30,047 nucleotides of DNA from Candidatus Aenigmatarchaeota archaeon (GTDB lineage: Archaea > Aenigmatarchaeota > Aenigmatarchaeia > Aenigmatarchaeales > JACQIB01), in the NCBI GenBank assembly GCA_046760225.1, contig JBHIDR010000006.1, positions 1 through 30,047 of the forward strand, given 5' to 3'. The notes under the pieces were generated by a model, which was given only the letters and a program-made list of their open reading frames with translations, was not told where the DNA came from and ran no database searches. A program made the position numbers and the translations under genes. Of the stretch, positions 6,485 through 28,787 are shown in pieces (the stretch's first letter is position 1; each line of letters begins with the position of its first letter).

Positions 6485-6634
6485 ATGAATATGGGTTGTT
6501 CATGTGGCGAGAGCCCTTACAATATGACAAAGAACGCGTCCGTGTATGGACCTGGTGTTAGAGAGAAAAGGCTCTTGGGATATGGAGAAGAGCCCCTGAG
6601 AACACCCAAATATTCAGGAGTTACTTACAGGTGA
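6485..6634 (+). CDS. 49-aa hypothetical micro-protein, probable first cistron of the tRNA-His/hisS unit
   Basis: MNMGCSCGESPYNMTKNASVYGPGVREKRLLGYGEEPLRTPKYSGVTYR*; TATA-like TTTATATA at 6451-6458, about 27 nt upstream. Confidence 0.5.
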   Translation: MNMGCSCGESPYNMTKNASVYGPGVREKRLLGYGEEPLRTPKYSGVTYR

Positions 6635-6646
6635 ATGAGATGAAAG

Positions 6647-6979
6647 GTGAACGAGTTCACAAAGAGAGTGCAGGATTCTGCTAGGTTCACCTCTAAATTA
6701 GACAAAAGAGGAAGAGCACTTGTTTCTGCTGATATAAGGAAATTATTGAGGCTTAGATTTGGCTCTGTGGTTCTTGTTGAGATTGGTAGTTCTAGCTTTA
6801 GTACTAAGATAGATGATAGAGGAAGGTTTTCTGTTCCTACTAGGATAAGGAATGGCCGGGATAGTGTAGTAGTCAACATACGAGCCTGTGGAGCTTGTGA
6901 CGCGGGTGCAAATCCCGCTCCCGGCCCCATTGAAACTTTTAGAAAAAGTTTCATCAAAAACAGGAGGTGTAAAAAATGA
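6647..6979 (+). CDS. Tandem AbrB/SpoVT (MraZ-like) DNA-binding protein whose 3' part contains tRNA-His
   Basis: Two repeats, FTSKLDKRGRALVSADIRKLL and FSTKIDDRGRFSVPTRIR, resembling the D-x-x-G-R-x-x-x-P-x-x-x-R AbrB/MraZ pattern. GTG start at 6647 or 6668. Confidence 0.65.
   Translation: MNEFTKRVQDSARFTSKLDKRGRALVSADIRKLLRLRFGSVVLVEIGSSSFSTKIDDRGRFSVPTRIRNGRDSVVVNIRACGACDAGANPAPGPIETFRKSFIKNRRCKK
6854..6929 (+). tRNA. tRNA-His(GTG), intronless, with encoded G-1 and CCA
   Basis: G-1, acceptor GCCGGGA/TCCCGGC, C73, CCA; anticodon arm CGAGC-CTGTGGA-GCTTG; T arm GCGGG-TGCAAAT-CCCGC. Confidence 0.95.
6931..6960. repeat. Perfect 10-bp hairpin plus TCAAAAA tail directly after tRNA-His
   Basis: TGAAACTTTT-AGA-AAAAGTTTCA-TCAAAAA; resembles tRNA-Arg intron 4. 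Confidence 0.6.
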
Positions 6980-7123
6980 GTGGTGAAGAAGTTCACATAT
7001 GAGGAGGACTGGGAACTGAAGGAAATGCAAAAGGACCTGAGAAACGGAGAAATAACAAAAGAGCAATATGAAGTGTTTCTCATTTTAACAGGGAGATATA
7101 AAATATATGAAGGCAAAATATAA
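6980..7123 (+). CDS. 47-aa micro-protein, SHOCT-like
   Basis: AGGAGGTG RBS at 6962-6969, GTG start; MVKKFTYEEDWELKEMQKDLRNGEITKEQYEVFLILTGRYKIYEGKI* (LxxGEITxEQY pattern). Confidence 0.55.
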   Translation: MVKKFTYEEDWELKEMQKDLRNGEITKEQYEVFLILTGRYKIYEGKI

Positions 7124-7132
7124 GGTGATAAC

Positions 7133-8416
7133 ATGAAGTTCCAGAAGCCGAAAGGCACAAGAGACCTGATGCCAGAGGACATGGCAAAGAGGAGGAAGTA
7201 CTTTGAGGCAGTCAGGAAGGTATTGATAAGGTACGGCTATGGAGAGATAATGACACCTGCGTTCGAGACCCTTGCGCTCTTGGAGGCAAAGGGGAGCATA
7301 GGACAGGAATGCGTAAAGGATGTTTTCAGGATATGGGACAAGGGAAAAGAGAAGCTCGGTTATGGGCTGATATTCGATCCCACGACACCAATAGCAAGGA
7401 TTGTTGCAAATGACACAAGCTTGCAGAAGCCAATGAGATGGTACTATATCAGGCCAATGTGGAGGTATGAGGAAACAAGGCCAGGCAGGTACAGGGAATT
7501 CTGGCAGGCAGGTGTTGAACTAATAGGAAGTGACAGTCCTCTGGCTGATGCAGAGATACTTGCAATAACCTATGACTGCATGAAGGCAATGGGGATAACT
7601 GACTTTACTCTTCGGGTGAATTCAAGAAAAATAATGGAATCACTTGCAAAGATAGCAGGCATACCTGAAGAAAAAAGAACAGATGCTTTCAGAATAATTG
7701 ACAAGCTTGACAAGATTGGTGAGAAGGAAGTCAGGGGCGAACTGGAAAGGTTTGAAATACCCAAGGAGGCAATAGACAGTTTTATACGTTATGTGAAAAT
7801 GGGAAAGGAAGACATCAAAAAGGAACTGAAGGACTACAAGGAAGCACTGGAGGACCTTGAAGAAATAGAGCAGGTCCTTGAATATGCAAAGAAGATGGGT
7901 GTTGACAATGCCCGGCTTGACCTGAGCATAATAAGAGGTATAGATTATTATACTGGTTTTATTTTCGAGACATTTGTCAAGGGTTATGAAAAGCTCGGGA
8001 GTGTTGCTTCTGGAGGAAGGTATGACTCACTAATAGAAATATATGGCGGAAAGCCAACTCCTGCAACAGGAGTTGGCATTGGTATTGACAGGATGATGGA
8101 GATATTCAAGGAGAAAGTTCCTTATTCACCATTAGTCTATGTTGCAAATGCAAAGGAAGAGACAAAGGACGATGCAATAAGGATTGCACAGATGCTGAGG
8201 AAGGAGATATCAGCTGAATTTGATGTTCTGGGAAAGAAATTGAAAAAACAGTTCGAGTATGTCAATACAAAGGAAATTCCATATTGCGTGATTGTGGGTC
8301 CTGATGAAATAAAAGAAAATTCTGTTGTTGTAAGGGACATGAAGAGCGGGAAGGAAGAAAAAATTGAAGTAAAAAAGCTAAAAGATTTCTTTTTACAACT
8401 AAAGAAGAGAAAGTAA
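7133..8416 (+). CDS. hisS: Histidyl-tRNA synthetase
   Basis: PKGTRD, WRYEETRPGRYREFWQAGVE, RGIDYYTG, SGGRYDSL and anticodon-binding domain. Confidence 0.97.
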   Translation: MKFQKPKGTRDLMPEDMAKRRKYFEAVRKVLIRYGYGEIMTPAFETLALLEAKGSIGQECVKDVFRIWDKGKEKLGYGLIFDPTTPIARIVANDTSLQKPMRWYYIRPMWRYEETRPGRYREFWQAGVELIGSDSPLADAEILAITYDCMKAMGITDFTLRVNSRKIMESLAKIAGIPEEKRTDAFRIIDKLDKIGEKEVRGELERFEIPKEAIDSFIRYVKMGKEDIKKELKDYKEALEDLEEIEQVLEYAKKMGVDNARLDLSIIRGIDYYTGFIFETFVKGYEKLGSVASGGRYDSLIEIYGGKPTPATGVGIGIDRMMEIFKEKVPYSPLVYVANAKEETKDDAIRIAQMLRKEISAEFDVLGKKLKKQFEYVNTKEIPYCVIVGPDEIKENSVVVRDMKSGKEEKIEVKKLKDFFLQLKKRK

Positions 8417-8473
8417 ATGAAAAAGCTGGATGGCACTTACCCCTAAATGGAACTAGAAAGAGTGAAATTCCTG

Positions 8474-8587
8474 CTAACTAACGGCGAATATCGTGTCTTC
8501 TAGTACGAACCCGCATTTCTTGCAAACTATTTCCAATGAGCCATTCTTTATTTTATGCGAACCGCATTCGGGACAGGCTATCCTCAT
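8474..8587 (-). CDS. 37-aa stand-alone TFIIB-type zinc ribbon
   Basis: MRIACPECGSHKIKNGSLEIVCKKCGFVLEDTIFAVS*; TTAAATA box about 24 nt upstream on the minus strand. Confidence 0.7.
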   Translation of the reverse strand: MRIACPECGSHKIKNGSLEIVCKKCGFVLEDTIFAVS

Positions 8588-8746
8588 AATAAAGTCTTTG
8601 TAAAGAAAGCTATTTAAGCATTATTGCGGTTCAATATCTATTCGACAAAAAGTAATTACACAGGGAAACGAGTAAAATTTTCACATGTTCGACAAAACGT
8701 TGAAATTTATAGAAAAGCTTTTTATTCATGAATAGTATCAAAAGTT

Positions 8747-10195
8747 ATGATAAACCTCGTGATTTTTGATTTGGGGGAAACCTTGGTCAGCCTGGACTCA
8801 TGCGAAAGGAATGCCATCCAGAGCGTTGCCAGAAGGCTCAGATCCATGGGCTACAGCACTGATTTTGAACAAATTAGGAACTCCAAATCAAAGAACAAAA
8901 ACAAAATCAAAAGACTGAAAGAAAGGCATGTTGAGAGATGGTTGCTTTTTGATGTGATATTAAGGGACATGGGACTGAAACTCAAAAACAGCGAAACAAG
9001 GGAAATTTCCAACCTTTACGATGAGAGCTATATTAAATCAAGCAAACTGAAGCCCTACGCGGTTTATGCCCTTAAAAGGGCAAGAAAGGAAGGGAAAAAG
9101 GTGGCACTGCTTTCTGACGGCTGGAACAAGGTATCGCGCGGGATACTGGAGCATCACGGCCTGAAAAATTATTTTGATTTTATTTTCACTTCCGAGGATT
9201 TGGAAAAAACAAAGCTCAATGGGGCATTCGGGGATTTTTGTGACCTGACAGGCTTTCTGCCGAAGGAATGCTTAGTCATAGGCAATGACGAGGAAAAGGA
9301 CGGAATTTCCACTAAATTAGGGATGTATTTCTGCTGTTTTGGTGGTCGGGGAGAATTTTCCATAAACAGCCTGAAAGAAGTTGACGGGATTTTCAAATTT
9401 TTCAGGAAAGACATAACCAAGAAGTGTTTCTTCTGTGATTCGGTTGTCTTGAATTCCATGTTCTGCAAAAAATGCAGCCCAGATGCGGAAAAAATAATAA
9501 GGGAAAGCGACAGAAAGGGGGGTTTGCTCACGGATTTGGATGATTATCTAGGGAGGGACACCATTGAAGAAGTGTTGAATGGACCTCTCCTGCTAAGAGA
9601 AGAATGGTTCAAAGCCAATCCAAGGAAAGAAAGGGAAGTCATTAATTTTTACAGAAAATCGGAAGCACAGATATTTGACTTGACGCTCTTTCACAGCGCC
9701 CCCCACGTAATGAAGCAGGACAAAGAAATCAAAACGATAATAAAGGATAAGGGAGGGAAGTTCATTGATTTCGGGGCAGGCATAGGGCACCTTACTGTGT
9801 CAGTTTCCCTGTTGGGATTAAGAACATTCCATTCTGACCTGAAAGGAAAGACCATGGATTATGCCTTATGGAGGTCAAAAAGGCACGGTACCAAAATAAA
9901 TTTTGTTGATGTTAAGTTCAATACGAAGTTCGATTCTATTGTTTGCACTGATGTGCTCGAGCATCATACAAACCCAATAGGGCTGTTAAGGTTCCTGGAA
10001 AAAAGATTGAACAAGAAAGGCTTGCTTATCGTCAACGGCAAATTTCAGGGAGAGAAGGGAATAGACTATTTGCGCCCAATGCATCTGTTGTCCAATTACG
10101 GCATGACAGTCCCTTTGATAGTGAAAGAAGTATCCAAAAATTTAAAGATTGTATCCACATTAAATGATGGACTCTATGTCTTACAAAAACGTTGA
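8747..10195 (+). CDS. HAD-like hydrolase fused to a CxxC-CxxC linker and a class I SAM methyltransferase
   Basis: FDLGETL, LLSD and IGND HAD motifs; CFFC...CKKC; IDFGAGIGH and CTDVLEH methyltransferase motifs. Confidence 0.8.
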   Translation: MINLVIFDLGETLVSLDSCERNAIQSVARRLRSMGYSTDFEQIRNSKSKNKNKIKRLKERHVERWLLFDVILRDMGLKLKNSETREISNLYDESYIKSSKLKPYAVYALKRARKEGKKVALLSDGWNKVSRGILEHHGLKNYFDFIFTSEDLEKTKLNGAFGDFCDLTGFLPKECLVIGNDEEKDGISTKLGMYFCCFGGRGEFSINSLKEVDGIFKFFRKDITKKCFFCDSVVLNSMFCKKCSPDAEKIIRESDRKGGLLTDLDDYLGRDTIEEVLNGPLLLREEWFKANPRKEREVINFYRKSEAQIFDLTLFHSAPHVMKQDKEIKTIIKDKGGKFIDFGAGIGHLTVSVSLLGLRTFHSDLKGKTMDYALWRSKRHGTKINFVDVKFNTKFDSIVCTDVLEHHTNPIGLLRFLEKRLNKKGLLIVNGKFQGEKGIDYLRPMHLLSNYGMTVPLIVKEVSKNLKIVSTLNDGLYVLQKR

Positions 10196-11141
10196 TATGG
10201 TATTCGTGTGCAGGGGCAGACCGGGGCTAGGTCATATAACCCCCTCGGTTGCAATTGCCCAGCATCTCAGCAGCACGATTGATTACTGTTTCATTACATA
10301 TGATACAGGGCCTGTCATCCTAAAGGAAAGGGGAATGCCATTCATCAGAATAGAAGGTCCGCCCCTCGGACAGAGATTAAGTCCTTTTTTTGATTTCATG
10401 GAATGCAAAAAAAATATCTGGCCATTCATCAAGAAATTGAACCCAACCGTGGTTGTCACGGACGGGGAATATTATCTACCCCATATTTGCAGGGAGAACA
10501 AAGTAAAAAATACAATAATTACAACAAGGCATTACCTGGAAGGGAACATAGGCCAGTATAAAAAATATTTTGATGTCATCAAAATATTGTTCAGGGCTGC
10601 GGACAGAATATTTTATCATGGATTAAAGGAGTCTGACGAAACAAGGATCAGTGCTGAATTTGCCGGACAGTTTGTGGGCAAATTTCAAAAGGTGAAGGAA
10701 GAGGATGTAATTACAGTTTCAACAGGTGGAGGCAACCTTGATCATATGAAGAAGAATGATGATGCAGTATTTGAAAAAATTCTTGAAATAAAGGGATTCA
10801 AATTCAACCTGTTTACTGGGGCTACTGGCAGGTTCAGCAGAAACATAATAGAAGAATTCTGCAGGGGCAGGGCAGTCATTGCAAGGGCAGGACTCGTGAC
10901 ACTTGAGGAATTGCTGTACTTGGGAAAACCCTCTGTTTTGCTTGTGCCAAAAGATGATGAAGAAAAGTTTTCCAATGCCTGCTTGGCTGAAAAAATAGGG
11001 CTTGGAATTAAAATCATGGAAGACGAATATGAAGAAGGAAATTTCAAGGACATACTCAAGAAGGTAATGGAAAAGAGGCCTATTGCTTCCAAATCAAATG
11101 GTGCGGCACATGTTGCAAAAATCCTTGAGGATATTATATGA
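10164..11141 (+). CDS. GT-B glycosyltransferase (GT28/MurG-like)
   Basis: GLGHIT, VVTDGE, STGGG, IARAGLVTLEE..LGKPSVLLV, NA motifs; start may be 10176. Confidence 0.82.
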   Translation: MMDSMSYKNVDMVFVCRGRPGLGHITPSVAIAQHLSSTIDYCFITYDTGPVILKERGMPFIRIEGPPLGQRLSPFFDFMECKKNIWPFIKKLNPTVVVTDGEYYLPHICRENKVKNTIITTRHYLEGNIGQYKKYFDVIKILFRAADRIFYHGLKESDETRISAEFAGQFVGKFQKVKEEDVITVSTGGGNLDHMKKNDDAVFEKILEIKGFKFNLFTGATGRFSRNIIEEFCRGRAVIARAGLVTLEELLYLGKPSVLLVPKDDEEKFSNACLAEKIGLGIKIMEDEYEEGNFKDILKKVMEKRPIASKSNGAAHVAKILEDII

Positions 11142-18202: not shown

Positions 18203-20992
18203 ATGGCTGGGGGACGTTATATTTCAACAATAGTTATTATTGCTCTTTTTGTAGGCATGGGCATAGCTATTGCTGATTCTTCATCCCCTATTCCAGAATT
18301 CTCAATAAATGCAACAAGCCTTGGTTTTGGCTGGAACTACCAGGGAGTCCTGAACCTGAGCCTGAATACAAGCTATTACAGCTATACAAACATCACAATA
18401 CCCAATGATACTGTTGTCTATGACAACCTCCAGAATGGCATAAACACCTATACTGACAACCTTAATGCAACCCTGAATATTTCTGTTGCCAATTCCAGCA
18501 CATTCATGCTCACAGGCGATGTCAATTCAAGCCATGGGGCAGGAAGATATACTGGCAGCATGACTGTTTACAACGAGACCACTCCCTCGGGTGCGAATGC
18601 CACCATATCTTTGACACTTGATGTTCCTGTAACATTCAATGCAAGCAACATAGGGACATTTGAGGCAAATGTAACCAACAGCACCAGCCAGACATTCTAT
18701 TTCGATGTTACCAATGTAACTGGCTATACTGGTGGCATTGAGGTAAACCTATCTGATATAAGCTCTTCGGCTACTGTCACACTTTATGACAATGACAGCA
18801 CCCAGCTTGCAACAGGCACAGTGAATTCAAGCAACAGCCTAGAATACAAGCTGCCAGGGGCTGAAACAACATCAGAATACTGGTACATAGTCATCCAGAA
18901 CAGTACAACCCAGTCTGACCTGACTTTCAATGGAACAATCGAGGCAAAAATGGCAAGCTTTGTTGAGGGCGGTGGGCCGTCTGGTGGCGGCATATATCTA
19001 GGCCCGGGCACGCAAACCTATGATGATAACGTAGGTTTCAACAAGACCATTCAGACAGGCTTCTACATAAACAACACGGCTGGCTATACTCTGAGTTTCA
19101 ACAGTGTGACAAACTCCACAAACCTGACAGACGGTTCAGGAAACTTCAGACTGATGGATTCGAACGTGACCGGTACCAACTTAGGGAGCGGAACATCAAG
19201 ATATTTTGAAGTCAATTATACGCTAAATACAAGCCTTACTGGCAACACAGCCGGTATATACAGGGGATGGTTTTTCTTCAACACAAGCAATGGATATCCG
19301 TACGATACTTTCAACCTCACAATCGAGTTCAATCTGACTAACCTCCTTGATACAACCGTGAGTGATGTAACTAACAATACTGTTGACTCGAACTGGACGT
19401 ATTCGAACTCCACAATAAACATTACTCTGACACCGGGGTATGCCAACGGAACAGTTGTTTCAGGGCTTGGTGACAACAACTTCAGTGTAAGTATTTCACA
19501 TGTAAATGGGGGCGCATTCACCTGTGTGGTTGACCTAACCAATGAAACTGTTGTAGACAGCGGTTCCAACTATAACATTACTGCAAAGGTGCCTGCAACA
19601 AGCAGCTGCGGATACAGCAGTGCTGTGCTGGGTGGTAACTATACTGTTAATGTTTCTGTTACTGATGACAATACAGGGGGGACCAATACAGGAAGCGGGA
19701 CCTGGAACGGCACACTCTATGTTAATGAGACAGCACTTAACGTGACAGGTTTGCAGAGCGGTTCTGTTTTGACAAGCATATCAAAGACAGTTGGGGGGAC
19801 ATTTGATATTGATCCAAAAGCCTTCAATTATGGCTCGCGTGCAGCACAGGGAGTGAATGTCACGCAGAGCACAGGAAGCTGCGTCAACAAAACAGCTGGC
19901 CCTGACACAATATACATAGGGGATATGAGTGCATGGGATTATGATGGCCAGCTTAATGGGAGTGCAACAAGCTGGACATTCAATGCAACCTCGAATGGCA
20001 CATGTACAATAACACTGACAGGAGAGGCACTTGGAACATCATGGCAGGCAAAAACACACAGCATAAGTGTTACTGTAACCACATCTGGCAACGGAGGCAA
20101 CGGCGGCGATGGTGACGGCACTACTGATGACACTACAACACAGCCAACATTAGAACATGAGCTCACGATAACAGAGTATACAAATCAAATAGAGGTTGAG
20201 CAGGGCAAGTCGGGAAGCGCCTCTATTACTGTAAAGAACACAGGGGACTATACCGAAACAGTGAGCCTGTCCATTGATGGGATTGACAGCGGCTGGTGGA
20301 CGTCACCGAACAGCAAGGAACTAAGCAAAGATTCAACGCACACGTTCAACATAAACTTCAACATACCTGAATCAGCAGAGGTCAAGAGCTATGGCATCAC
20401 GTTCACTGCAAGCTCACCAGACACTTCAACATCAGCCAGCTCAACATTGAAGGTCACCCCCAGCAATGCCACGCAGGAAGAGATAATGCAGAACCTGACG
20501 AATCTCACCTCATTGATAGAGGACATTGGGAAGGAGCTGAACTCTACCAGGGCGGCCGGCTACAATGTCAGCACAGCAGAGGATTTCCTCAAGGACGCCA
20601 AGGACAAGCTCAAGGAAGCAAAGGCATATGCTGATGTTGAGGACTGGTTCAATGCATACCAGCTGCTTGATGACATAAAGAGCGCAATTGAGAGCGCCCA
20701 GAACGCGCTTGGGGAATCCAAGGAAGAAACCGGGAAAGGGCTAGAGATACCTTCTGGTGCAATGGTAATTGCTGCAATTGCGATATTGGGTGCAATAGCT
20801 TATCTTGCGCTTCCTGCAGGCAAGGGCTACAGCAGGGGTGGTTACAGCTTTGGGGGGCACCACTGGGGTGACAAGAAAGGAAGGGTATTAAAGAGCAAGC
20901 TCAAGGAGAAATTAAGGAAGCTCAAGGAGAAGCTGAAAAGCAAGAGAAAGAAAGGTGGAAGCCAAAGCTACCATTACAGCTTTGATTTTTAG
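18203..20992 (+). CDS. Large secreted N/T/S-rich cell-surface glycoprotein with Ig-like (NEW3/CARDB-like) domain, coiled coil and C-terminal TM helix
   Basis: AGGAGGT RBS, signal peptide, dense sequons, ITVKNTGDYTE motif, helical segment, TM helix and Lys-rich tail. Confidence 0.75.
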   Translation: MAGGRYISTIVIIALFVGMGIAIADSSSPIPEFSINATSLGFGWNYQGVLNLSLNTSYYSYTNITIPNDTVVYDNLQNGINTYTDNLNATLNISVANSSTFMLTGDVNSSHGAGRYTGSMTVYNETTPSGANATISLTLDVPVTFNASNIGTFEANVTNSTSQTFYFDVTNVTGYTGGIEVNLSDISSSATVTLYDNDSTQLATGTVNSSNSLEYKLPGAETTSEYWYIVIQNSTTQSDLTFNGTIEAKMASFVEGGGPSGGGIYLGPGTQTYDDNVGFNKTIQTGFYINNTAGYTLSFNSVTNSTNLTDGSGNFRLMDSNVTGTNLGSGTSRYFEVNYTLNTSLTGNTAGIYRGWFFFNTSNGYPYDTFNLTIEFNLTNLLDTTVSDVTNNTVDSNWTYSNSTINITLTPGYANGTVVSGLGDNNFSVSISHVNGGAFTCVVDLTNETVVDSGSNYNITAKVPATSSCGYSSAVLGGNYTVNVSVTDDNTGGTNTGSGTWNGTLYVNETALNVTGLQSGSVLTSISKTVGGTFDIDPKAFNYGSRAAQGVNVTQSTGSCVNKTAGPDTIYIGDMSAWDYDGQLNGSATSWTFNATSNGTCTITLTGEALGTSWQAKTHSISVTVTTSGNGGNGGDGDGTTDDTTTQPTLEHELTITEYTNQIEVEQGKSGSASITVKNTGDYTETVSLSIDGIDSGWWTSPNSKELSKDSTHTFNINFNIPESAEVKSYGITFTASSPDTSTSASSTLKVTPSNATQEEIMQNLTNLTSLIEDIGKELNSTRAAGYNVSTAEDFLKDAKDKLKEAKAYADVEDWFNAYQLLDDIKSAIESAQNALGESKEETGKGLEIPSGAMVIAAIAILGAIAYLALPAGKGYSRGGYSFGGHHWGDKKGRVLKSKLKEKLRKLKEKLKSKRKKGGSQSYHYSFDF

Positions 20993-21375
20993 CAGGGAGA
21001 TTTCTCCATGCATACTGTGCATTTCTCAAGCGAGGGGGAGGAATCCCTGTGGACAGCACATATGATCTTCCTTTTCCTTATTATCCTGCATATCAGGCAT
21101 AACTCATTCATTGCAACTATGGCATTCATCTCACCATGGGCAATTGCCTTGGCAAGCTTATCGATCTCTTTCATCACAGCGCTGTCCTTTACAAGTGCCT
21201 TTACCTTGTATCCACGAAGATGCCGAATGTACTGAGAAACAGCTGCCTGTGTCACGCCGAGCCTTTCAGCAACATCTGTCTGTGTCATTGTGTACTTTTC
21301 CATGAGTTCCTTTGCAACCAGGGCCCTTACAGCAGGCAGAACATCCTGGACAACTATTTCGCAAAACGGCTTCAC
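20989..21375 (-). CDS. HTH transcriptional regulator (COG2522-like) with C-terminal Cys/His cluster
   Basis: PFCE...LPAVRALVAKEL...MTQTDVAERLGVTQAAVSQY; C..C...C..H...C..C. Confidence 0.85.
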   Translation of the reverse strand: MKPFCEIVVQDVLPAVRALVAKELMEKYTMTQTDVAERLGVTQAAVSQYIRHLRGYKVKALVKDSAVMKEIDKLAKAIAHGEMNAIVAMNELCLICRIIRKRKIICAVHRDSSPSLEKCTVCMEKSPC

Positions 21376-21467: not shown

Positions 21468-21595
21468 GCCGGGGTGGCAGATACCGCAAGGCTGTAACGG
21501 CTATGCACCTGATTCCTGAGCTGTTGCTCATGAAGGTGAACCTGCAGTCGTTAGGCAGCAAGCAGGAGAGTTGGGTTCGACTCCCAACCCCGGCT
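21468..21595 (+). tRNA. tRNA-Cys(GCA) with three introns: 21483-21497, 21512-21540, 21548-21560
   Basis: Acceptor GCCGGGG/CCCCGGC, U73; spliced anticodon arm CCTGC-CTGCAGA-GCAGG; T arm TTGGG-TTCGACT-CCCAA; TTTTTAAAT promoter upstream. Confidence 0.88.
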
Positions 21596-21614: not shown

Positions 21615-22997
21615 ATGCTGAAGGTCCATAACACGCTTACGAAAAAAGATGAGGAATTCAGGCCAATGAAGGGCAAAGAAGTAAAAATGTTTGTCTGTGG
21701 TCCTACTGTCTATGACTACACTCACATAGGGCATGCAAAGAGCTATGTTGCATTCGACGTTATAGCAAAGTACCTGAGGTACAGGGGCTTCAAGGTATTC
21801 TATCTCCAGAACATCACTGATGTAGAGGACAGGCTAATAATCAGGTCAAAGGAGAGCGGAAGGAGTGTTGCTGACCTTGTAAAGGAGTTTACCAAGAAGT
21901 ACTATGAGGACATGGAGGCCCTTGGTGTTGACAGCATTGACAAGTATGCTCCTGCAACAGAATATATGAAACAGATAATAGAACAGGTAAAAGGACTGAT
22001 TGAAAAGGGGTTTGCATATGAGATATCTGATGGAGTTTATTATGATGTTTCCAAGTTTCCTGAATACGGAAAGCTTTCTCACCTTAAAAAGGAAGCCATT
22101 AAAAAGCACAGGATAGAGCCGAACCCAGAGAAAAGGAATCCTGAAGATTTTGTATTGTGGAAGAAACACAAGCCTGGGGAGCCTGCATGGGACTCTCCTT
22201 GGGGCAAGGGAAGGCCTGGCTGGCATATTGAGGACACTGCCATAACAATACACCACTTCGGAAGCCAGTATGACCTGCATGGCGGGGGAGAGGATCTGAT
22301 ATTTCCCCATCATGACTGCGAGATAGCGCAGGCAGAGGCCTTTACAGGAGTAAAGCCGTTTGTCAGGTACTGGCTGCACAATGCATTCATACTTGTCGAG
22401 GGCCAGAAGATGTCAAAGAGCCTTGGAAATTTCTACACTGTGAGGGATATATTTGCAAAGGGCTATGAGCCAATTGTTGTAAGATTCTCATTATTGAACA
22501 CGAATTATAACAAGCCTGCAAACTTTACTTTCTCTGCGCTTGAATCGGGGAAGGATGGCATTGATAGATTAAGGGAGTTCATGAGAAAGGTCAAGGAAGC
22601 AAAAGGAGAAGAAGCTGGGATTGAAAAGCTGATAGAAGAAACAAGAGAGAAGTTCGAGAATGCAATGGATGACAACTTCAACACACCGAATGCAATTGCT
22701 GCTATTTTTAATTTTGTAAGGGATGTGAACAAGCTCGTGGATGAAGGAAAAGTGAGCCAGGAGGAAGGGAAAAAGATAATAGGACTTATGGAGAAATTTG
22801 ATTCTGTTCTTGGCATACTGAAAGGATGGGAAAAGGAGGAGAAGATACCGGAAGATATAAGCAAACTTCTTGAAGAAAGGGAAGAAGCAAGAAAGAAAAA
22901 GGACTTCAAGCTTGCAGATGACATAAGAAATAAAATAAAGGACAAAGGATGGATTGTGGAAGATACGCCTTCTGGACCAAGAGTGAGGAAGGCATGA
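21615..22997 (+). CDS. cysS: Cysteinyl-tRNA synthetase
   Basis: CGPTVYDYTHIGH, DFVLWK, GRPGWHIE, DLIFPHH and KMSKS motifs. Confidence 0.97.
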   Translation: MLKVHNTLTKKDEEFRPMKGKEVKMFVCGPTVYDYTHIGHAKSYVAFDVIAKYLRYRGFKVFYLQNITDVEDRLIIRSKESGRSVADLVKEFTKKYYEDMEALGVDSIDKYAPATEYMKQIIEQVKGLIEKGFAYEISDGVYYDVSKFPEYGKLSHLKKEAIKKHRIEPNPEKRNPEDFVLWKKHKPGEPAWDSPWGKGRPGWHIEDTAITIHHFGSQYDLHGGGEDLIFPHHDCEIAQAEAFTGVKPFVRYWLHNAFILVEGQKMSKSLGNFYTVRDIFAKGYEPIVVRFSLLNTNYNKPANFTFSALESGKDGIDRLREFMRKVKEAKGEEAGIEKLIEETREKFENAMDDNFNTPNAIAAIFNFVRDVNKLVDEGKVSQEEGKKIIGLMEKFDSVLGILKGWEKEEKIPEDISKLLEEREEARKKKDFKLADDIRNKIKDKGWIVEDTPSGPRVRKA

Positions 22998-23880: not shown

Positions 23881-24729
23881 ATGCGAAAGCATGACTGTCT
23901 GTTGCTGAGAGTGGGTGAGGCAGCGCTGAAGAGCGAGCAGGTGCAGAGGAAATGGAACAGGATTCTGCTTGAGAACATACGCGCTGCACTGAAAGGAATA
24001 GATTATGATATCCAGATTAATCCCAGCAGGTTCTTTGTCTATACGAAGAGCATAAAGAGGGTTCAGAACAGGCTGAAGAGGGTCTTTGGTATAACTTCTG
24101 TTTCTCCTTGCTGGGTATGCAGATCAGAGCTTGATGAGATTAGTAGACTGGCTGTGGATGTTGCCAGGAAAATTAGGGTAAAGAAAGGAACGAGCTTTGC
24201 AATAAGGACAAGAAGAGCAGGAAGGCACAAGTTCACATCAAGGGCAATTGCTGAGAACGCTGGTGCTGCTGTGCTGAGGGCAACAAAGGCCAGGGTAAAC
24301 CTCACAAAACCGAAAAAAGAAATATTCATTGAGTGCAGGTCAAGCAAGACCTATATTTTTACTGAGAAGATACCTGCTGTAGGTGGCCTGCCATTGGGAA
24401 CAGCGGGCAAGATGCTTGCTATTGTAAGGGACAAGAGGGACATGGTTGCTGCATGGCTCATGATGAGAAGGGGCGCAGAGCTTGTTGTTATCGGGAATGC
24501 AGGGAAACTGAGGAAATGGCACATCGGGAAAGAGCTAAAGGCCTACAGGAGCAGGAAGAAAATAAAAGAAATAATAAAAAAGGAAAAAATTATTGCTGTT
24601 GTTTCCGGAAAGATGCCGGAAAAGGAAGTGGAAGAGCTGATAAAAAAAGAGAACGTGCTGCTCCTTCTGCCCCTGGTGGGCTGGGAAAGCAAGAAAATTA
24701 ACTCGTTTAAGAGGGTACTCCTTCATTAA
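23881..24729 (+). CDS. ThiI-like THUMP protein with degenerate PP-loop domain
   Basis: GEAALKS, LKRVFGITSVS, THUMP (FAIRTRR, VNLTKPKKEIFIE), GGLPLGTAGK...VAAWLMMRRG; no SGGxDS. Confidence 0.82.
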   Translation: MRKHDCLLLRVGEAALKSEQVQRKWNRILLENIRAALKGIDYDIQINPSRFFVYTKSIKRVQNRLKRVFGITSVSPCWVCRSELDEISRLAVDVARKIRVKKGTSFAIRTRRAGRHKFTSRAIAENAGAAVLRATKARVNLTKPKKEIFIECRSSKTYIFTEKIPAVGGLPLGTAGKMLAIVRDKRDMVAAWLMMRRGAELVVIGNAGKLRKWHIGKELKAYRSRKKIKEIIKKEKIIAVVSGKMPEKEVEELIKKENVLLLLPLVGWESKKINSFKRVLLH

Positions 24730-24873
24730 ATTACTTACAACTTAGTGGTGAAAGCTTTAAATACCTTTTGTTATATATTTACTATTAGGAAGTTAGGTTC
24801 ACAAGCAAGTAATAAACTATAAATACCCGCTTGGGCTATTAGAATGCAACAATAAGTATGGGGTGGTGATGAG

Positions 24874-25677
24874 ATGGTAGCAACACAAAATGTTTTGGAT
24901 GCACTAAAACAAATAGGATTAAATCTTTATGAAAGAAAACTGTGGGTAGCTTTGCTATCCAGAGGAACAGCAACTGCTGGTACCCTATCTAGTTTGGCCA
25001 AAGTTCCGCACAGCAGAACATATGATGTGCTGGAATCACTGGCTGACAAAGGGTTTGTAATGATTCAGAACACAAAACCTTTGAAATATGTTGCCATACC
25101 ACCCAAAGAAGCCCTTGAAAGAGCAAAGAAAAAGCTAAGAGAAAAGACAGATGTTGCCGTCTCACGAATAAACAAGATTGAAAAATCATCCACCATCAAG
25201 GAGCTTGAAAAGATGCACAAGAAGGGTGTTGCCCTGATTGAACCAGGAGAAATGACAGGCTCTCTGAAGGGAAGGGGTGCAATACATGGACAGATGGAAA
25301 CTCTTTTCAAAGGCGCAAGGAAAAAGATTTCAATTGTCACCACGGCTGAAGGTGCAAAGGAGCTTCATGACAAGCACGGCGACATTCTCAAAAAGGCTGC
25401 AGGCAAGGGAGTGAAGGTAAGGATCGCAGCACATCCAAAGGCCGGCGATGCAACATACAAGGGAATGAAGAAGTACGCTGATGTGAGGAAGCTCACTGAC
25501 AAGATGGCCGGAAGGTTCTGCGTTGTGGACGACAAGCATATTGTGATGGCACTGACAGATGACAAGGATGTTCATCCGTCACAGGATCTGGCTCTCTGGA
25601 CACAGGGTGCCCATATAGGCGGAAAGGTAATGGGACCAATGTTCGATGTCATGTGGAAGAACCTGCCATCTGCCTGA
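24874..25677 (+). CDS. TrmB-family transcriptional regulator/chromatin protein
   Basis: LKQIGLNLYE...VPHSRTYDVLESLADKGFV...PLKYVAIPP, followed by a PLD-like C-terminal domain. Confidence 0.9.
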   Translation: MVATQNVLDALKQIGLNLYERKLWVALLSRGTATAGTLSSLAKVPHSRTYDVLESLADKGFVMIQNTKPLKYVAIPPKEALERAKKKLREKTDVAVSRINKIEKSSTIKELEKMHKKGVALIEPGEMTGSLKGRGAIHGQMETLFKGARKKISIVTTAEGAKELHDKHGDILKKAAGKGVKVRIAAHPKAGDATYKGMKKYADVRKLTDKMAGRFCVVDDKHIVMALTDDKDVHPSQDLALWTQGAHIGGKVMGPMFDVMWKNLPSA

Positions 25678-25686
25678 AACCGCAGC

Positions 25687-25705
25687 TTTTTATTTTCTGC
25701 TTTTT
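25687..25705 (+). terminator. Oligo-T tract after the TrmB-family gene
   Basis: TTTTTATTTTCTGCTTTTT shortly after the stop. Confidence 0.4.
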
Positions 25706-25716
25706 AATGTGTTAGC

Positions 25717-26319
25717 ATGAGCCTTATTGAGAGCATGCTGGAATGGAGCAGGCTGGCGCTGCTGCCGCTTGGAGAAGCAGGCCTGTTTGTGGTTGCGTTC
25801 ACTGAATCATCCTTCTCACCAATACCTGTGGAGCTGCTTCTGATACCAATGGCACTGGCAAAGCCAGAGCTTGCGCTTTGGTTCGCCTTTATCGCGACCT
25901 TTGCATCTGTTGCAGGGGCTGTTCTTGGGCATTGGATAGGCCTGAAAGGAGGCAGACCACTTCTAAGGAAACTGGTTTCTGACCACAAGGTAAACAGGGC
26001 AGAGCATTACTTCAATAAGTATGGCTCAATGGCTGTTTTCATAGGCGCTTTCACACCAATACCCTACAAGATATTCACAATAACAGCAGGCATGCTCAAA
26101 TTCAGGCTGTACAAGACAATAATAGCTTCAATAGCAGGCAGGACACCAAGGTTCTTTGCAGAGGCAATAGTTATAATGCTCTGGGGAGAGGCAATAGTGG
26201 CCTTCCTTTCAGAATATTTCGAGATAGTCACGCTCGGGCTTGGTGCAGCTGTCATAGGAGCCTATATTATATACAAGAAATTAAAGAAAAGCAGGCCTCT
26301 TGCTCATAAGAGGCGGTAG
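25717..26319 (+). CDS. DedA/YqaA (VTT) membrane protein
   Basis: AFTESSFSPIPVELLLIPM, FTPIPYKIFTITAG, GRTPRF. Confidence 0.9.
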   Translation: MSLIESMLEWSRLALLPLGEAGLFVVAFTESSFSPIPVELLLIPMALAKPELALWFAFIATFASVAGAVLGHWIGLKGGRPLLRKLVSDHKVNRAEHYFNKYGSMAVFIGAFTPIPYKIFTITAGMLKFRLYKTIIASIAGRTPRFFAEAIVIMLWGEAIVAFLSEYFEIVTLGLGAAVIGAYIIYKKLKKSRPLAHKRR

Positions 26320-28149
26320 CGGGAGCGGCTTGAACGGCTTTCCTTTGCTCCTTTCTTTAACATAGTTGACTACTTCTTTCGATAACATATTCTTTACTTC
26401 TCCGTTCTCCCTAAACCTGACAGCCAGTTTACCTGAGTCCTTTTCCTTCTTTCCCACAACAATTATCAAAGGAACCCATTCCTTTTCTGCGTCCCTCACT
26501 TTCTTCTGCACGCTCTCTGCTCTGTCATCTATGTCAATCCGTATGTCCTGTGCTGATATCTCCTTTGCGATGTCTTTACAATAGTCAATGAAGTCATCGT
26601 TCAAGGGGCAGAGGCGCACCTGTATCGGGCTCAGCCATAGCGGCAGCATAGGGTTCTTCATCATTGCAGCCTTCTCCAGTATAGCATACATGCACCTCTC
26701 TATTGCACCTGATGGGGAGCAATGCAGTATCAACGGGTATTTCCTCTTATTGTTCTCTGCAGTATACATTACCTTGTACCTCTCTGCATTCTCATGGTCT
26801 ATTTGCACTGTTGACAGGGCACTTGCCTTGTTCAGGCTGTCAACAAAATTGAACTCGAACTTTGGGTCAAAGTACGCGAAGCGCTTGCTCCATATCTCTA
26901 TAAGTAAAGGAGAATTGACCTTTTGCGCCAGTCTTTGGGCCATCTTCTGGTTGTCCTTCTGCTTCCAGAGGTCCTTTGAGAACCTTACAGCTGTCTCATA
27001 TTCTCCTGGCTTGAAACCCAGATCTTCCATAAGACCCATGCAAAATTCGAACTGGTTTTCGAACTCTTCATTTGCCTGCTTCAAATCCTTACATAGTGTA
27101 TGCATATCTGGCATTGTGAAGGCCCGAAGCCTTCTGAGTCCTGAAAGCTCACCGGGCTTTTCCAACCTAAAGGAATACCTTGTCAGTTCGTACATCTTCA
27201 GAGGAAGGTTCCTGTATGATATAGTCATTCCGTGCTTCATCAGGAACTGACCAAAGCATGCAGAGAAGCGCAAAAAGAACCTCTTCTTGAAGGACTCCAC
27301 AACATACTGGCGTGCTGGAAAGCGGTGCAGATAGCTCTTTAGTGCAGGATGCTCGTAGTCATACATTATCGGGGTCTCAACCTCCATTGCGCCGTATTTG
27401 ACTGTCTTCTGAGTGACCCATTCCTCAAGCAGCGACTTTATCAGCCTTCCCTTGGGAAAGAAGCGAAGGTTCCCTGGATCGCTGCCGCTCTCGTGGTCAA
27501 CAAGCTCGAGCGCCCGCATATATTTCACATGGGGAGGCATCTTTTCAGCTGCTCTCTTTTTTTCTGACTCATATGAATAGAACTTCTTGAGATTATCAAA
27601 GCCCTTGAAGTCAAACTCCTTTGCAGGGACAATCTTTCCGTCAGGCGCCATTATGAACCATTCAGACTTTATCTTTTCCTCGTCCTTCAGGGCACCGGAT
27701 ATCTCTTCTTCTGCCTTTGCAACACCTGGAATGCTTACGATTTCCCTGCTGAGCTCTGACAGAGGATGACCCTTGACAGATATGCTAAATGCCTTGTACC
27801 ATCCAAAGGGAGCATGTTCTACTTTGTAATTATCTTTCTTCAGAGCCTTCTCTATTCCAAAGAGAACCTTCATCGCTGCATCTGATGAAGAAGGCTCGTT
27901 TGTTAGATGGACATATGGATAGAGCACTATGTTCTTTGTCTTTACTTCTTCAGCTATCTTCTTTACTTCTTCAGCAGTGTTCTGTATTGTCAGAACAACA
28001 GCTGATTCGTCTCGCTTCTCAACTGCTGAGAAGACCACCAGGCACTCCTTGAAGGACAGCTTCTTCTTCTCTACCTTCTCTGCATCCTTTATGGCCTTCT
28101 TTTTTGGCTCTATCTCGAGCGAGTTGCTGTGCATGGTTATTATTTTCAT
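26281..28149 (-). CDS. thrS: Threonyl-tRNA synthetase, archaeal type with N-terminal editing domain
   Basis: LYPYVHL, APFGWYKAFSISVKGHPLSELSR, LRFSACFGQF, RLRAFTMPDMH, ILHCSPSGAIER. Confidence 0.97.
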   Translation of the reverse strand: MKIITMHSNSLEIEPKKKAIKDAEKVEKKKLSFKECLVVFSAVEKRDESAVVLTIQNTAEEVKKIAEEVKTKNIVLYPYVHLTNEPSSSDAAMKVLFGIEKALKKDNYKVEHAPFGWYKAFSISVKGHPLSELSREIVSIPGVAKAEEEISGALKDEEKIKSEWFIMAPDGKIVPAKEFDFKGFDNLKKFYSYESEKKRAAEKMPPHVKYMRALELVDHESGSDPGNLRFFPKGRLIKSLLEEWVTQKTVKYGAMEVETPIMYDYEHPALKSYLHRFPARQYVVESFKKRFFLRFSACFGQFLMKHGMTISYRNLPLKMYELTRYSFRLEKPGELSGLRRLRAFTMPDMHTLCKDLKQANEEFENQFEFCMGLMEDLGFKPGEYETAVRFSKDLWKQKDNQKMAQRLAQKVNSPLLIEIWSKRFAYFDPKFEFNFVDSLNKASALSTVQIDHENAERYKVMYTAENNKRKYPLILHCSPSGAIERCMYAILEKAAMMKNPMLPLWLSPIQVRLCPLNDDFIDYCKDIAKEISAQDIRIDIDDRAESVQKKVRDAEKEWVPLIIVVGKKEKDSGKLAVRFRENGEVKNMLSKEVVNYVKERSKGKPFKPLPLPPLMSKRPAFL

Positions 28150-28196
28150 ATAAACACCTTGTTCACAGTGGAATATAAGTTTTATTCATATATTTT

Positions 28197-28322
28197 TCAA
28201 ATCAGTACTCTATTCTCCAGATATTCCACTGCCTGTTCTGGGTCACCATCTCCGTATTTCTTCACAAAGTCTTCTGGTACATACCATATCTGCTCTGCCC
28301 CAATCTCTGCAAATCCTTTCAT
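28197..28322 (-). CDS. 41-aa hypothetical micro-protein
   Basis: AGGAGGTG RBS; ATGA overlap with the upstream ORF stop; MKGFAEIGAEQIWYVPEDFVKKYGDGDPEQAVEYLENRVLI*. Confidence 0.6.
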   Translation of the reverse strand: MKGFAEIGAEQIWYVPEDFVKKYGDGDPEQAVEYLENRVLI

Positions 28323-28663
28323 CTTTTACACCTCCTTGATTTTTTGGAGCCCTGAGAGGGACTTGAACCCCCAGCCTGCTGCTTACAAGGCAGCTGCTCT
28401 GCCATTGAGCTATCAGGGCACAATAATTCGATAGCGCTAGGTCTTCCTCTACCATTTGAAATCTTGATAGGGACACCACACGAATTGCCTTTCAACCGCG
28501 CATATGCATATCGAGAGAATGACAGCTTCCTCAAATTTGGGCATCTTTCTAAAACAAGTTTTAAAAGCCTCTTGCTTACAAACTTCCTGAAGTGCACGCA
28601 AGAAACATCAGGTGAAAGTTTTGATATATCAGCATAGCTAGAAACAATTAGTCCGCTTATCAC
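28319..28663 (-). CDS. DUF1699-like protein whose 3' part contains tRNA-Thr
   Basis: IVSSYADISKLSPDVSCVHFRKFVSKRLLKLVLERCPNLRKLSFS resembles DUF1699 (VVSS..I..L....VH.....CP....I), recalled rather than searched; GGTGA RBS before the GTG. Confidence 0.55.
   Translation of the reverse strand: MISGLIVSSYADISKLSPDVSCVHFRKFVSKRLLKLVLERCPNLRKLSFSRYAYARLKGNSCGVPIKISNGRGRPSAIELLCPDSSMAEQLPCKQQAGGSSPSQGSKKSRRCKR
28345..28419 (-). tRNA. tRNA-Thr(TGT), intronless, with encoded CCA
   Basis: GCCCTGATAGCTCAATGGCAGAGCAGCTGCCTTGTAAGCAGCAGGCTGGGGGTTCAAGTCCCTCTCAGGGCTCCA folds into a 75-nt cloverleaf. Confidence 0.96.
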
Positions 28664-28787
28664 TCTGTCCGTAATTCACCTTTCACCTTCAACACCTATC
28701 TAACTATTTATTTGCAACCTTTTTAAAAGGGGCAGAAATGTCACAAAAATTAACCTTAAAAAAGTCTGTTGAACAAACTATACTCAT

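Follow-up and report, generated by a model that had tools for sequence, protein, structure and literature searches.

Cognate tRNA-synthetase operons with short leader reading frames in an archaeal contig: a candidate frameshift sensor of amino acid supply

In Escherichia coli, pheST/pheM, hisL and trpL carry a translated leader with codons for their own amino acid, by which the ribosome gauges charged tRNA. T-boxes of Gram-positive bacteria resemble the system studied here in that synthetase genes are turned on under uncharged cognate tRNA. In the pylT-pylS pair, the cognate tRNA gene stands before its synthetase gene. To our knowledge, neither T-boxes nor attenuators have been described in Archaea, and how synthetases, tRNAs and biosynthesis are matched to demand there is largely unknown. 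Here we analysed a stretch of 30,047 nucleotides (nt) from a Candidatus Aenigmatarchaeota archaeon (contig JBHIDR010000006.1 of assembly GCA_046760225.1), which is hereafter called the window. It is contig C6 of our assembly G000 (the source genome: 851 kb, 83 contigs, 44% guanine plus cytosine, 83% complete). In three places of the window, a tRNA gene lies directly 5′ of its cognate synthetase gene on the same strand (tRNA-His/hisS, tRNA-Thr/thrS and tRNA-Cys/cysS). We judge the chance to be somewhat better than even that these are three members of an amino acid-specific operon family spread over a class of small-genome (DPANN-like) archaea. With a similarly slight preponderance, the sequences point to a programmed frameshift of the prfB kind known from bacteria, here at a "hungry" sensor codon; it would control whether ribosomes pass the tRNA and reach a second sensor module and the synthetase.

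Short spacing of an internal Shine-Dalgarno (SD) sequence favours +1 frameshifting and long spacing favours −1 frameshifting; at the release factor 2 (RF2) site the spacing is 3 nt. Internal SD stimulators are known in bacteria for +1 (RF2) and −1 (dnaX, 10 nt upstream) frameshifting, according to the available text of PMC5009743. The operon heads described here resemble that of prfB, the RF2 gene, as presented there: a short zero-frame open reading frame (ORF), a main ORF at +1, an internal SD-like stimulator a few nucleotides before the slip codon and a slow sensor codon in the A site (PMC5009743). The Trp and Tyr heads, CUU_UGG and CUU_UAU, can be set beside CUU_U(GA) of RF2 in the same text (PMC5009743). 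However, the sensor of prfB is a stop codon read by the gene's own product, whereas here it would be a sense codon read by the cognate aminoacyl-tRNA. Moreover, one grammar serves at least seven amino acids here and has two-step and −1 variants, the shifted ORF is a putative small regulator containing a tRNA gene, and the organisms are archaea. The available text also describes ermC, where an antibiotic induces a leader frameshift and the shifted ribosomes continue in the new frame and switch on downstream expression, and calls the frameshifting in pheL incidental (PMC5009743). The ermC trigger is a drug, its host is bacterial and neither a tRNA gene nor a regulator ORF takes part, whereas the trigger here would be aminoacyl-tRNA supply. 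For Archaea, the part of a 2021 review that was available names a single −1 frameshift, in fucA1, as the only demonstrated case (PMC8211752).

Mukai et al. (2017) reported tRNATrp-ORF1-TrpRS-A operons with Trp-free proteins in bacteria of the Candidate Phyla Radiation and in DPANN archaea, and the bacterial operon is sometimes headed by a trp repressor (PMC5370408, available text). These operons are similar to ours in that the cognate tRNA lies directly before the synthetase, with a small ORF between them (PMC5370408). However, TrpRS-A forms an accessory clade only, and its ORF1 encodes a helical class-I-synthetase-like protein; the available text mentions no leader, sensor codon or ORF across the tRNA, whereas the operons here serve housekeeping synthetases of many amino acids (PMC5370408). 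In the literature, as far as its text was available, no archaeal synthetase operon was found described with a cognate-codon leader, a frameshift sensor or an ORF across the tRNA. An earlier annotation of the window from its letters alone (the original prediction) had likewise known of no described system of this form. The amino acid-sensing device would be widespread and is apparently undescribed.

Leader-peptide attenuation also depends on a short translated leader with the operon's own codon before synthetase or biosynthetic genes, but attenuators use a run of such codons, whereas a single sensor codon per frame (or two in successive frames) is present here. Between 6380 and 7200 we found no terminator-like sites and no terminator or antiterminator hairpins, and the leaders fold no better than shuffled sequences (z-scores −0.94, −0.29 and +0.37); thus, bacterial-style attenuation or an SD-sequestering structure is unsupported. 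A T-box or another known RNA element was rejected, because nothing relevant appeared in Rfam at E-values up to 5: there was no T-box match at the gathering score or at E up to 5, and at the gathering score only two tRNAs were reported. Unlike a T-box, which is a leader that binds tRNA, the tRNA here is itself a gene and shows all tRNA features.

The original prediction described a repeated cassette at the His and Thr loci, made of a large ORF containing a tRNA, a small ORF and the cognate synthetase gene, and all of these elements lie where it had placed them. We refer to the large ORF as ORF1. The features of the His cassette are as follows.

6440 to 6458, plus strand: putative promoter of the His operon, read from the sequence, with a TCCCAC box at 6440-6445 and a TATA box TTTATATA at 6451-6458
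6485 to 6634, plus strand: 49-codon ORF between promoter and leader, present only in the source genome; its stop lies inside the SD of leader 1
6630 to 6684, plus strand: leader module 1, with SD GGTGA at 6630-6634, leader ORF at 6640-6684 (MKGERVHKESAGFC, MKGERVH..), SD-like GGTGA at 6646-6650, slip codon GTT at 6655-6657 and sensor codon CAC at 6658-6660
6641 to 6651, plus strand: TGAAAGGTGAA, as read in the sequence
6647 to 6979, plus strand: ORF1, AbrB/SpoVT/MraZ-like, GTG start, 110 amino acids, in the +1 frame of leader 1
6854 to 6929, plus strand: tRNA-His(GTG), 6855-6929 in ARAGORN, Rfam 62.4 bits, intronless, with encoded G-1 and CCA
6962 to 7002, plus strand: leader module 2, with SD AGGAGGTG at 6962-6969, leader 2 at 6976-7002 (MSGEEVHI) and sensor codon CAC at 6994-6996
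6980 to 7123, plus strand: micro-ORF of 47 codons in the +1 frame of leader 2, ending 9 nt before the hisS ATG
7133 to 8416, plus strand: hisS, Pfam tRNA-synt_His 1.9e-58, 66% identity to the same-genus genome G001

The tRNA-His gene is embedded in ORF1 in its sole stop-free frame, and the ORF1 stop (TGA, 6977-6979) overlaps the ATG of leader 2. ORF1 reads through AGGAGGTGTAAAA and ends ..RRCKK, and it contains no His codons. The view that AGGAGGTGTAAAA is a ribosome-binding site was right, and the second module behind the tRNA to which it belongs, where an SD-like GGTGA lies 4 nt before a slip codon GTT, had been missed. Similarly, TGAAAGGTGAA had been correctly placed at or just before the ORF1 start, but its identity as the first codons of a leader (ATG AAA GGT GAA) had been overlooked. 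The GTG, which had been taken as the start of the large ORF, is probably part of the internal SD-like frameshift stimulator.

The Thr cassette lies on the other strand and has a more complex head.

28638 to 28700, minus strand: two-step Thr head, with leader 28686-28660 ((V)KGELRTE) and sensor 1, ACA, at 28668-28666; the +1 frame at 28679-28638 holds sensor 2, ACT, at 28652-28650
28685 to 28675, minus strand: TGAAAGGTGAA, as read in the sequence
28319 to 28663, minus strand: ORF1, GTG start, 114 amino acids, in the +2 frame of the leader, degenerate winged-helix-like
28345 to 28419, minus strand: tRNA-Thr(TGT), called by ARAGORN, Rfam 72.4 bits, intronless, with encoded CCA
28197 to 28322, minus strand: 41-codon ORF after tRNA-Thr, with SD AGGAGGTG upstream
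28179 to 28172, minus strand: TATA-like box CTTATATT of thrS, 23 nt before the ATG, where the original prediction had seen it
28149 to 26281, minus strand: thrS (Pfam)

Both Thr sensors are preceded by CGG and by an SD-like element 4 nt upstream. Under the frameshift reading, ORF1 is reached only after two successive +1 steps, and not by a GTG start as had been proposed. The idea of a decayed Thr head was dropped, since the intermediate frame bears a second Thr codon in the same geometry. ORF1 stays open through tRNA-Thr, reads through AGGAGGTGTAAAA and ends ..RRCKR, with its stop inside the ATGA that also holds the start of the ORF behind it. None of its 114 codons is a Thr codon. The assembly of this cassette is supported by contigs from four DNA runs of one study, which tile it; the run contigs break within tRNAs, as expected for shared k-mers.

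To place these cassettes, we used a comparison set of 40 related genomes of 0.3-2 Mb with 30 loci inspected per enzyme. Profile searches with ORF1 covered 42 genomes of the order and 301 genomes sampled from the phylum; only 30 loci were inspected per search, and one further AbrB place was left out. All the genomes compared are metagenome bins. The tRNA genes were called with ARAGORN and Rfam, and the calls needed manual correction in this intron-rich group.

The key element, a short leader ORF with a single cognate codon, lies in the operon heads. Each head consists of an SD (GGTGA), followed 5-6 nt later by a short ORF which overlaps the ORF1 start in another frame. These leaders are 5-25 codons long with the consensus ATG-NNN-GGT-GAN-NNN-(C/G)TT-[own amino acid codon], and the cognate amino acid is encoded at codon 6-8 in all but three leaders, where it stands at position 5, 10 or 12. 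Among the 30 AbrB-profile loci of the order (29 intact heads), the sensor matched in 17/17 His, 10/10 Asn and 2/2 Tyr heads. The 14 AbrB-profile loci of other families gave 9/9 for His and 4/4 for Asn, and one unrelated match had no leader. Taken together, all His-type heads (26/26) have a His codon at leader position 6-12. The 30 winged-helix-profile loci comprised 16 Trp heads, all with "NTT TGG", one longer Trp-containing leader, seven Phe heads and one Ser head; a Thr-sensor head was seen once, in the source genome. The genes downstream are those of HisRS, HisG and HisI; AsnRS and an AsnA-like protein; TyrRS; PheRS alpha; SerRS; and, behind the Trp leaders, TrpRS (10), TrpB-like (2) and TrpE (1). 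Thus, for seven amino acids the leader codon matches the downstream function over about 70 heads.

Two further observations concern the sensor codon. Synonymous variants (AAT/AAC, CAC/CAT) retain the sensor and alter the ORF1-frame residue, and the sensor codon is precisely where paralogous His-type and Asn-type heads differ. Within the source genome, the leader pattern occurs only at synthetase cassettes, apart from three weak unrelated matches. A second leader module behind the tRNA was found for His and Trp in the source genome, for Tyr in G002, and for His in G001 and three genomes of family f3. A palindrome GTGAAC-NN-GTTCAC was considered as an operator and dropped, because it occurs in His heads only and follows from the codons GGT GAA C / GTT CAC.

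The geometry around the sensor is also conserved. In 31 of the 36 modules, exactly 4 nt separate an SD-like GGTG(A/G) from the slip codon behind it, and ORF1 is in the +1 frame in 27 modules and in the +2 frame (two +1 steps or −1) in seven. All 16 Trp heads have NTT_TGG with ORF1 at +1, their slip codons being CTT (10), GTT (5) and TTT (1), and 14 of the 17 His heads of the order have CTT or GTT at this place. In the eight Phe/Ser heads, ORF1 is at −1 and the SD-like spacing is 8 nt in seven; none has an ATG, GTG or TTG in the ORF1 frame, and in six an in-frame stop precedes the sensor by 10 nt. The ORF1 frame likewise lacks a start codon at 4/16 Trp heads, both Tyr heads and two of three His heads of family f4; at least 15 heads have none. 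Ten heads are of the two-step type (f4-His, G010, G004, two His heads of other families, Tyr, and Thr of the source genome), with a second cognate codon in the intermediate frame, in the same geometry, where conservation of the ORF1 frame begins. Directly after this codon, f4-His and Tyr heads have a stop. The [GGNGA]-N4-codon-sensor arrangement is retained at second sensors, including those whose element lacks a GTG.

These results could also be explained without any slip. The leader would gauge charged tRNA as before, but ORF1 might start at the GTG inside the leader, as a dual start with one SD, and a ribosome stalled at the sensor 11 nt downstream would occlude or compete with this start and so set the dose of the regulator, which would control the promoter. 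Of the 27 one-step modules, all but two Trp heads do have a GTG at −11 in the ORF1 frame, and in the set of 16 Trp heads 12 have one. One SD would serve both starts; the ORF1 proteins are DNA-binding-like, and the AbrB heads share a TCCCAC promoter box. This explanation fits the one-step heads but fails where the ORF1 frame has no ATG, GTG or TTG and a stop just upstream (8/8 Phe/Ser, 4/16 Trp, two Tyr and two f4-His heads). It leaves unexplained why two-step heads carry another cognate codon in their intermediate frame, it does not account for the fixed [GGNGA]-N4 geometry where the element has no GTG (GGCGA), and it does not predict that the frame offset (+1 or −1) follows the spacing (4 or 8 nt). 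We consider an internal GTG start unlikely, although by no means negligible.

According to the frameshift reading, the leader would be a gauge of charged cognate tRNA. When charged tRNA is plentiful, the sensor codon would be read and translation would terminate a few codons later. When it is scarce, the ribosome would pause with the sensor codon in the A site, and the paused ribosome would be pulled by the SD-like GGTGA 4 nt upstream into a +1 slip into ORF1; in the Phe/Ser type the 8-nt spacing would give a −1 slip, and some heads, including that of Thr in the source genome, would need two successive slips at two cognate codons. The shifted ribosomes would make the regulator, go on through the tRNA to the next module, and then translate the downstream ORF and the synthetase. 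This translation may keep the transcript covered and coupled, so that tRNA, synthetase and, elsewhere, his or trp biosynthetic genes are supplied on demand, whereas an uncovered transcript would be terminated or merely processed into tRNA.

At the AbrB heads, ORF1 probably also feeds back on its promoter via the TCCCAC box. A TCCCAC followed by a TATA box within 3-22 nt occurs at only two places in the source genome, both at the heads of AbrB-type operons (His and Asn). Because the combination is limited to these two heads, it suggests autoregulation of the AbrB-like ORF1 through the box. AbrB heads in relatives have the box too, immediately before the TATA box.

We then examined the linkage between tRNA and synthetase genes. 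Besides the three pairs of the window, the source genome has on other contigs a tRNA-Trp before trpS, which is followed by pheS-alpha, and an AsnA-like gene, tRNA-Asn and asnS in a row. Cognate pairing in this genome exceeds chance, since five of its 21 ARAGORN tRNAs (His, Thr, Cys, Trp and Asn) head their own synthetase in an assembly of 851 kb. Other synthetase genes of this genome, assigned at Pfam class level only, have their own promoters and no tRNA. The relatives gave the following picture.

CysRS, 30 loci: tRNA-Cys upstream on the same strand in 20 (16 called by ARAGORN, four intron-bearing ones read manually)
HisRS, 30 loci: tRNA-His upstream in six; many others end at a contig edge
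TrpRS, 30 loci: tRNA-Trp upstream in two
ThrRS, 30 loci: tRNA-Thr only in the source genome; a divergent intron-bearing tRNA-Gln adjoins thrS in 17 relatives

The gap behind tRNA-Cys is at most 30 nt in 12 of the CysRS loci; five more loci were recovered by a loose pattern only and one locus is cut. Several misleading ARAGORN calls were corrected here: "Leu/Ser/Pyl" beside cysS in relatives is an intron-bearing tRNA-Cys, and "Stop(tta)/Gln/Lys/Thr" beside thrS is a tRNA-Gln(UUG) with an intron. Recurrence in relatives, which the original prediction had proposed as a check, was seen for tRNA-Cys/cysS (20/30) and for an ORF1 crossing tRNA-His (14 genomes), whereas the Thr cassette is unique to the source genome. 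A cognate tRNA upstream that leaves no room for a promoter was found for Cys (19-nt gap, SD only); for His and Thr the gap of about 200 nt could hold a separate promoter. The proposed design, in which tRNA, synthetase and a small regulator are linked, recurs for six amino acids (His, Cys, Trp, Asn, Tyr and Phe) across the whole class of small-genome archaea. As far as DNA sequences can tell, the linkage of tRNA, synthetase and a small DNA-binding-like protein is thus supported as a deliberate, conserved operon design and not a chance ORF over a tRNA.

The Cys pair of the window appears to be the minimal form of this family, with one promoter, the tRNA, 19 nt holding the SD, and cysS. The claim that tRNA-Cys directly precedes cysS was borne out, and the tRNA has three introns.

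21468 to 21595, plus strand: tRNA-Cys(GCA), with introns at 21482-21496, 21512-21540 and 21548-21560 and a mature form of 71 nt with U73
21615 to 22997, plus strand: cysS (Pfam), starting 19 nt after tRNA-Cys; the gap contains the SD (GGTGAT) only

One intron interrupts the D-loop, another the 5′ strand of the anticodon stem, and the third lies at 37/38; a TATA-like promoter of its own precedes the tRNA. ARAGORN missed this gene without its intron option and called it Asp(atc) with the option. The Asp call was rejected: comparing the gene with 16 relatives that lack introns, and with G033, whose introns occupy the same positions, identified it as tRNA-Cys. A co-occurring strain variant (runs X2 and X3) lacks the third intron and has a compensatory change in the anticodon stem (CCTGC/GCAGG to TCCGC/GCGGA); because both stem strands change and pairing is kept, the exon map is confirmed. 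A mini-ORF with a Cys codon between tRNA-Cys and cysS is present at only 8/20 junctions. It was judged incidental, because it arises wherever cysS begins with ATG-TTA-A or ATG-CTG-A, lies in the wrong frame and lacks an SD of its own. A small helix-turn-helix gene (20989-21375, minus strand; ArsR/MarR-like by weak matches) is divergent to the promoter of tRNA-Cys and could regulate the Cys pair.

The reading of ORF1 through tRNA genes was observed in several operons.

tRNA-His: 14 genomes; the one frame without a stop is used throughout, although in-frame indels of 0-22 codons occur
tRNA-His of G025 (L109/L014): an Asp/Glu-racemase-like ORF inserted in the His cassette also crosses the tRNA
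tRNA-Trp: three genomes, in two different frames
tRNA-Tyr: G002, 153 nt including the intron
tRNA-Phe: G030
tRNA-Asn: one case
tRNA-Thr: the source genome, in the window

Among the tRNAs of the source genome, frames 0 and 2 usually stop early in the tRNA, at about position 10 or 15 (for example, TAG in tRNA-His). The ORF1 stop abuts or overlaps the next start. The arrangement may be caused by plain genome compaction: the tRNAs would be co-transcribed with their neighbours and released by RNase P and tRNase Z, much as tRNAs punctuate mitochondrial transcripts. Hitch-hiking or co-transfer would then account for the adjacency, and neither the ORFs over tRNAs nor the sensors would have a regulatory meaning. 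Gene-tRNA overlap does seem common in the source genome, where an upstream ORF enters 11 of the 21 tRNAs and many such ORFs stop at the tRNA's own TAG. The Cys and Asn junctions without sensor also fit this view, as does the closeness of the Thr, Cys and Trp synthetases of the source genome to other families rather than to G001, since cassettes may move. However, compaction does not explain why the leader codon matches gene function for seven amino acids over about 70 heads, why geometry and frame are conserved across families, and why indels of 0-22 codons between the AbrB domain and tRNA-His always keep the single open frame. We regard it as a most improbable explanation.

Two further arrangements were observed at cassettes of this kind. 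At locus L179 of G083 (1489-3072), the AbrB-like ORF, tRNA-His and HisRS form a single open frame of 527 codons, preceded by a two-step His leader. In the Trp cassette of G023 (locus L136), an Asp/Glu-racemase-like gene (766-1494) lies between tRNA-Trp and trpS.

The ORF1 proteins fall into two types. At the protein level the His ORF1 is conserved in G001 and in families f5 and f7, where the changes in the DNA are mostly synonymous or conservative. Its pre-tRNA profile matched 31 places in 19 of the 42 genomes of the order and also 14 genomes of seven other families in the phylum sample. Its matches to Pfam MraZ (0.0067) and NCBIfam AbrB (5e-4) are both below cut-off, whereas one relative's ORF1 passes Pfam MraZ (1.2e-7). 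A four-sequence profile matched 2glw_A in the PDB with E 1e-4 over both half-repeats, SpoVT with 0.0097 and AbrB with 0.15, and the hairpin motif D-x-x-G-R-h-x-h-P is invariant in the alignment. These results give modest support to an AbrB/SpoVT/MraZ-like assignment for the His, Asn and Tyr ORF1. Nearly every copy heads hisS (alone or with hisG or hisI), asnS (alone or with an AsnA-like gene) or tyrS. No homologue of the His ORF1 was found among 5.8 billion predicted proteins; standard gene callers would be expected to miss or mis-start these regulator genes and to mask ORFs crossing tRNAs.

The Trp ORF1 represents a second family, which resembles winged-helix proteins weakly. It occurs at 95 places in 69 of the 301 genomes, heading trpS, trpB-like, trpE, pheS, serS and leuS loci. 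Its family matches were weak (Penicillinase_R at 1.3e-4, at the cut-off, for G023; TrmB; HTH_20). The Thr ORF1 matched only DUF1699 at 0.0026, aligns poorly with the Trp-type family and lacks the recognition-helix segment; it may be a degenerate relative of that family.

The small ORFs downstream are less uniform than had been assumed. The original prediction treated micro-ORFs as a common cassette element, but phmmer searches revealed no common family: homologues of the His micro-ORF exist only in G001 and G010 (all loci plus the genome), the Thr and Trp ones are orphans, and the 41-codon Thr ORF has no homologue among the compared loci. In G001 the micro-ORF has no start codon before its conserved part, yet it is in the +1 frame of a His-sensor leader. 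The 49-codon ORF of the His head is missing from G001, where the leader directly follows the TATA box. Its first codons (ATG GGT TGT TCA ..) look like those of a leader that has mutated; the ORF may have arisen as a copy of the head and then decayed.

The Thr cassette raises the question of mobility. A tRNA-Gln lies on its other side.

28788 to 28948, plus strand: tRNA-Gln(UUG) with three introns, divergent from the Thr cassette and missed by both ARAGORN and Rfam

Because tRNA-Gln directly adjoins thrS in 17 of 30 relatives and stands beside this locus in the window too, the Thr cassette of about 500 nt looks inserted between tRNA-Gln and thrS. Its tRNA is a second tRNA-Thr(UGU) copy; the other copy, on contig C16, has an intron. 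The cassettes might thus be mobile or selfish modules of a tRNA and a small regulator that insert beside synthetases, with a recent Thr insertion and with the conserved ends as element ends. The restriction of the Thr cassette to the source genome, its place between two genes that are neighbours in 17/30 relatives, and the extra tRNA copy carried along are in accord with this, as are the patchy synthetase similarity and the homing-endonuclease ORFs that abut other tRNAs of the genome. However, no integrase, transposase, target duplication or terminal repeats were seen in the cassettes, the 11-mer and 13-mer that they share are explained as leader start and SD, and the His and Asn heads are vertically conserved across families. 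As a full explanation, mobility seems very improbable to us, and it may add to the regulatory reading rather than replace it.

Several points weigh against regulation by frameshifting. Frameshifting, co-transcription and the function of ORF1 are all inferred from DNA, and the runs holding the window sequence are DNA runs only, with no RNA run listed. The related genomes are non-independent samples, and the ORF1 family assignments rest on weak matches. The slip codons are not uniformly slippery (CAA or GAA in Asn heads, CGG or CCC in some others), the GTG 11 nt before the sensor in the ORF1 frame of one-step modules may be an ordinary start, and 5/30 winged-helix loci have no readable sensor. 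Sensors are also wanting at some junctions: the Thr module behind the tRNA contains no Thr codon, tRNA-Cys/cysS has neither a regulator ORF nor a convincing sensor, and the Asn tRNA-synthetase junction has no convincing sensor. The synthetase genes could be transcribed separately, since thrS has its own TATA box and a TATA-like AT-rich stretch lies inside the His micro-ORF about 30 nt before hisS. Regarding the tRNAs, the joint chance of about 0.011 that the entering frame is open in six cases, which favours our reading, treats the cases as independent and rests on few, related ones. A same-strand open frame of at least 135 nt enters 11/21 tRNAs of the source genome stop-free, and because eight of these end inside the tRNA, the openness of ORF1 through the tRNA is perhaps partly a by-product of its frame. 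Finally, at locus L173 of G277 the gene behind a His-sensor leader and an MraZ/AbrB-like ORF is that of an aromatic-amino-acid lyase resembling histidine ammonia-lyase; a catabolic gene under a His leader is a misfit with induction on starvation.

A bolder proposal, which we put forward only tentatively, is that of a general modular recoding switch. One grammar would be adapted to at least seven amino acids by a change of sensor and to either slip direction by the spacer, two-step stacking would steepen the response, and the ORF would cross the tRNA deliberately so that frameshift efficiency decides the fate of the transcript. A transcript translated up to the synthetase would have its tRNA unfolded and be protected from termination, while on a bare transcript the tRNA would be excised or the transcript terminated.

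The operon family offers a concrete, sequence-defined candidate mechanism that is testable with reporters. Frameshifting predicts that swapping the sensor codon swaps the specificity, and that changing the spacer from 4 to 8 nt changes the direction of the slip. If frameshifting is true, a natural sense-codon frameshift sensor would join the few regulatory devices known to work by recoding (RF2, antizyme), and a tRNA gene could double as coding sequence. The bolder modular switch, if real, would amount to the first regulon controlled by sense-codon frameshifts and the first regulatory +1 frameshifting in cellular archaeal genes, and the tRNA genes would be the first to serve as translated coding sequence.

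The window encodes four synthetases according to Pfam, the fourth being IleRS, with no tRNA upstream of ileS.

4117 to 1112, minus strand: IleRS gene (Pfam)

The kinship of the synthetases differs among amino acids. HisRS of the source genome follows the expected kinship, with 66% identity to the same-genus G001, whereas ThrRS, CysRS and TrpRS have 57-71% identity to other families or genera and only 39-41% to G001. Because these three are closer to other families than to G001, the sequences suggest that synthetase types have been exchanged within the order, perhaps along with tRNA cassettes.

The tRNA-Gln genes beside thrS have a further feature. In 17 relatives (loci L032-L060), the anticodon-loop intron of 33-42 nt carries box C/D-like motifs (GATGA ... 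CTGA), which recalls the guide-RNA introns of archaeal tRNA-Trp.

Other elements were noticed in the source genome (C16, 1986-2924, minus strand; C72, 162-908, minus strand; C3, 24967-25736, plus strand). LAGLIDADG homing-endonuclease ORFs enter tRNA-Gly and tRNA-Pro, and the ARAGORN call of tRNA-Tyr contains a 693-nt "intron" with another such ORF. An intein is present in the eIF2-gamma gene of contig C3. Finally, our own scan revealed an intron-rich tRNA-like gene of 192 nt on contig C2 (34292-34483, minus strand), which is divergent from a 921-codon class I (I/L/M/V-type) synthetase gene.

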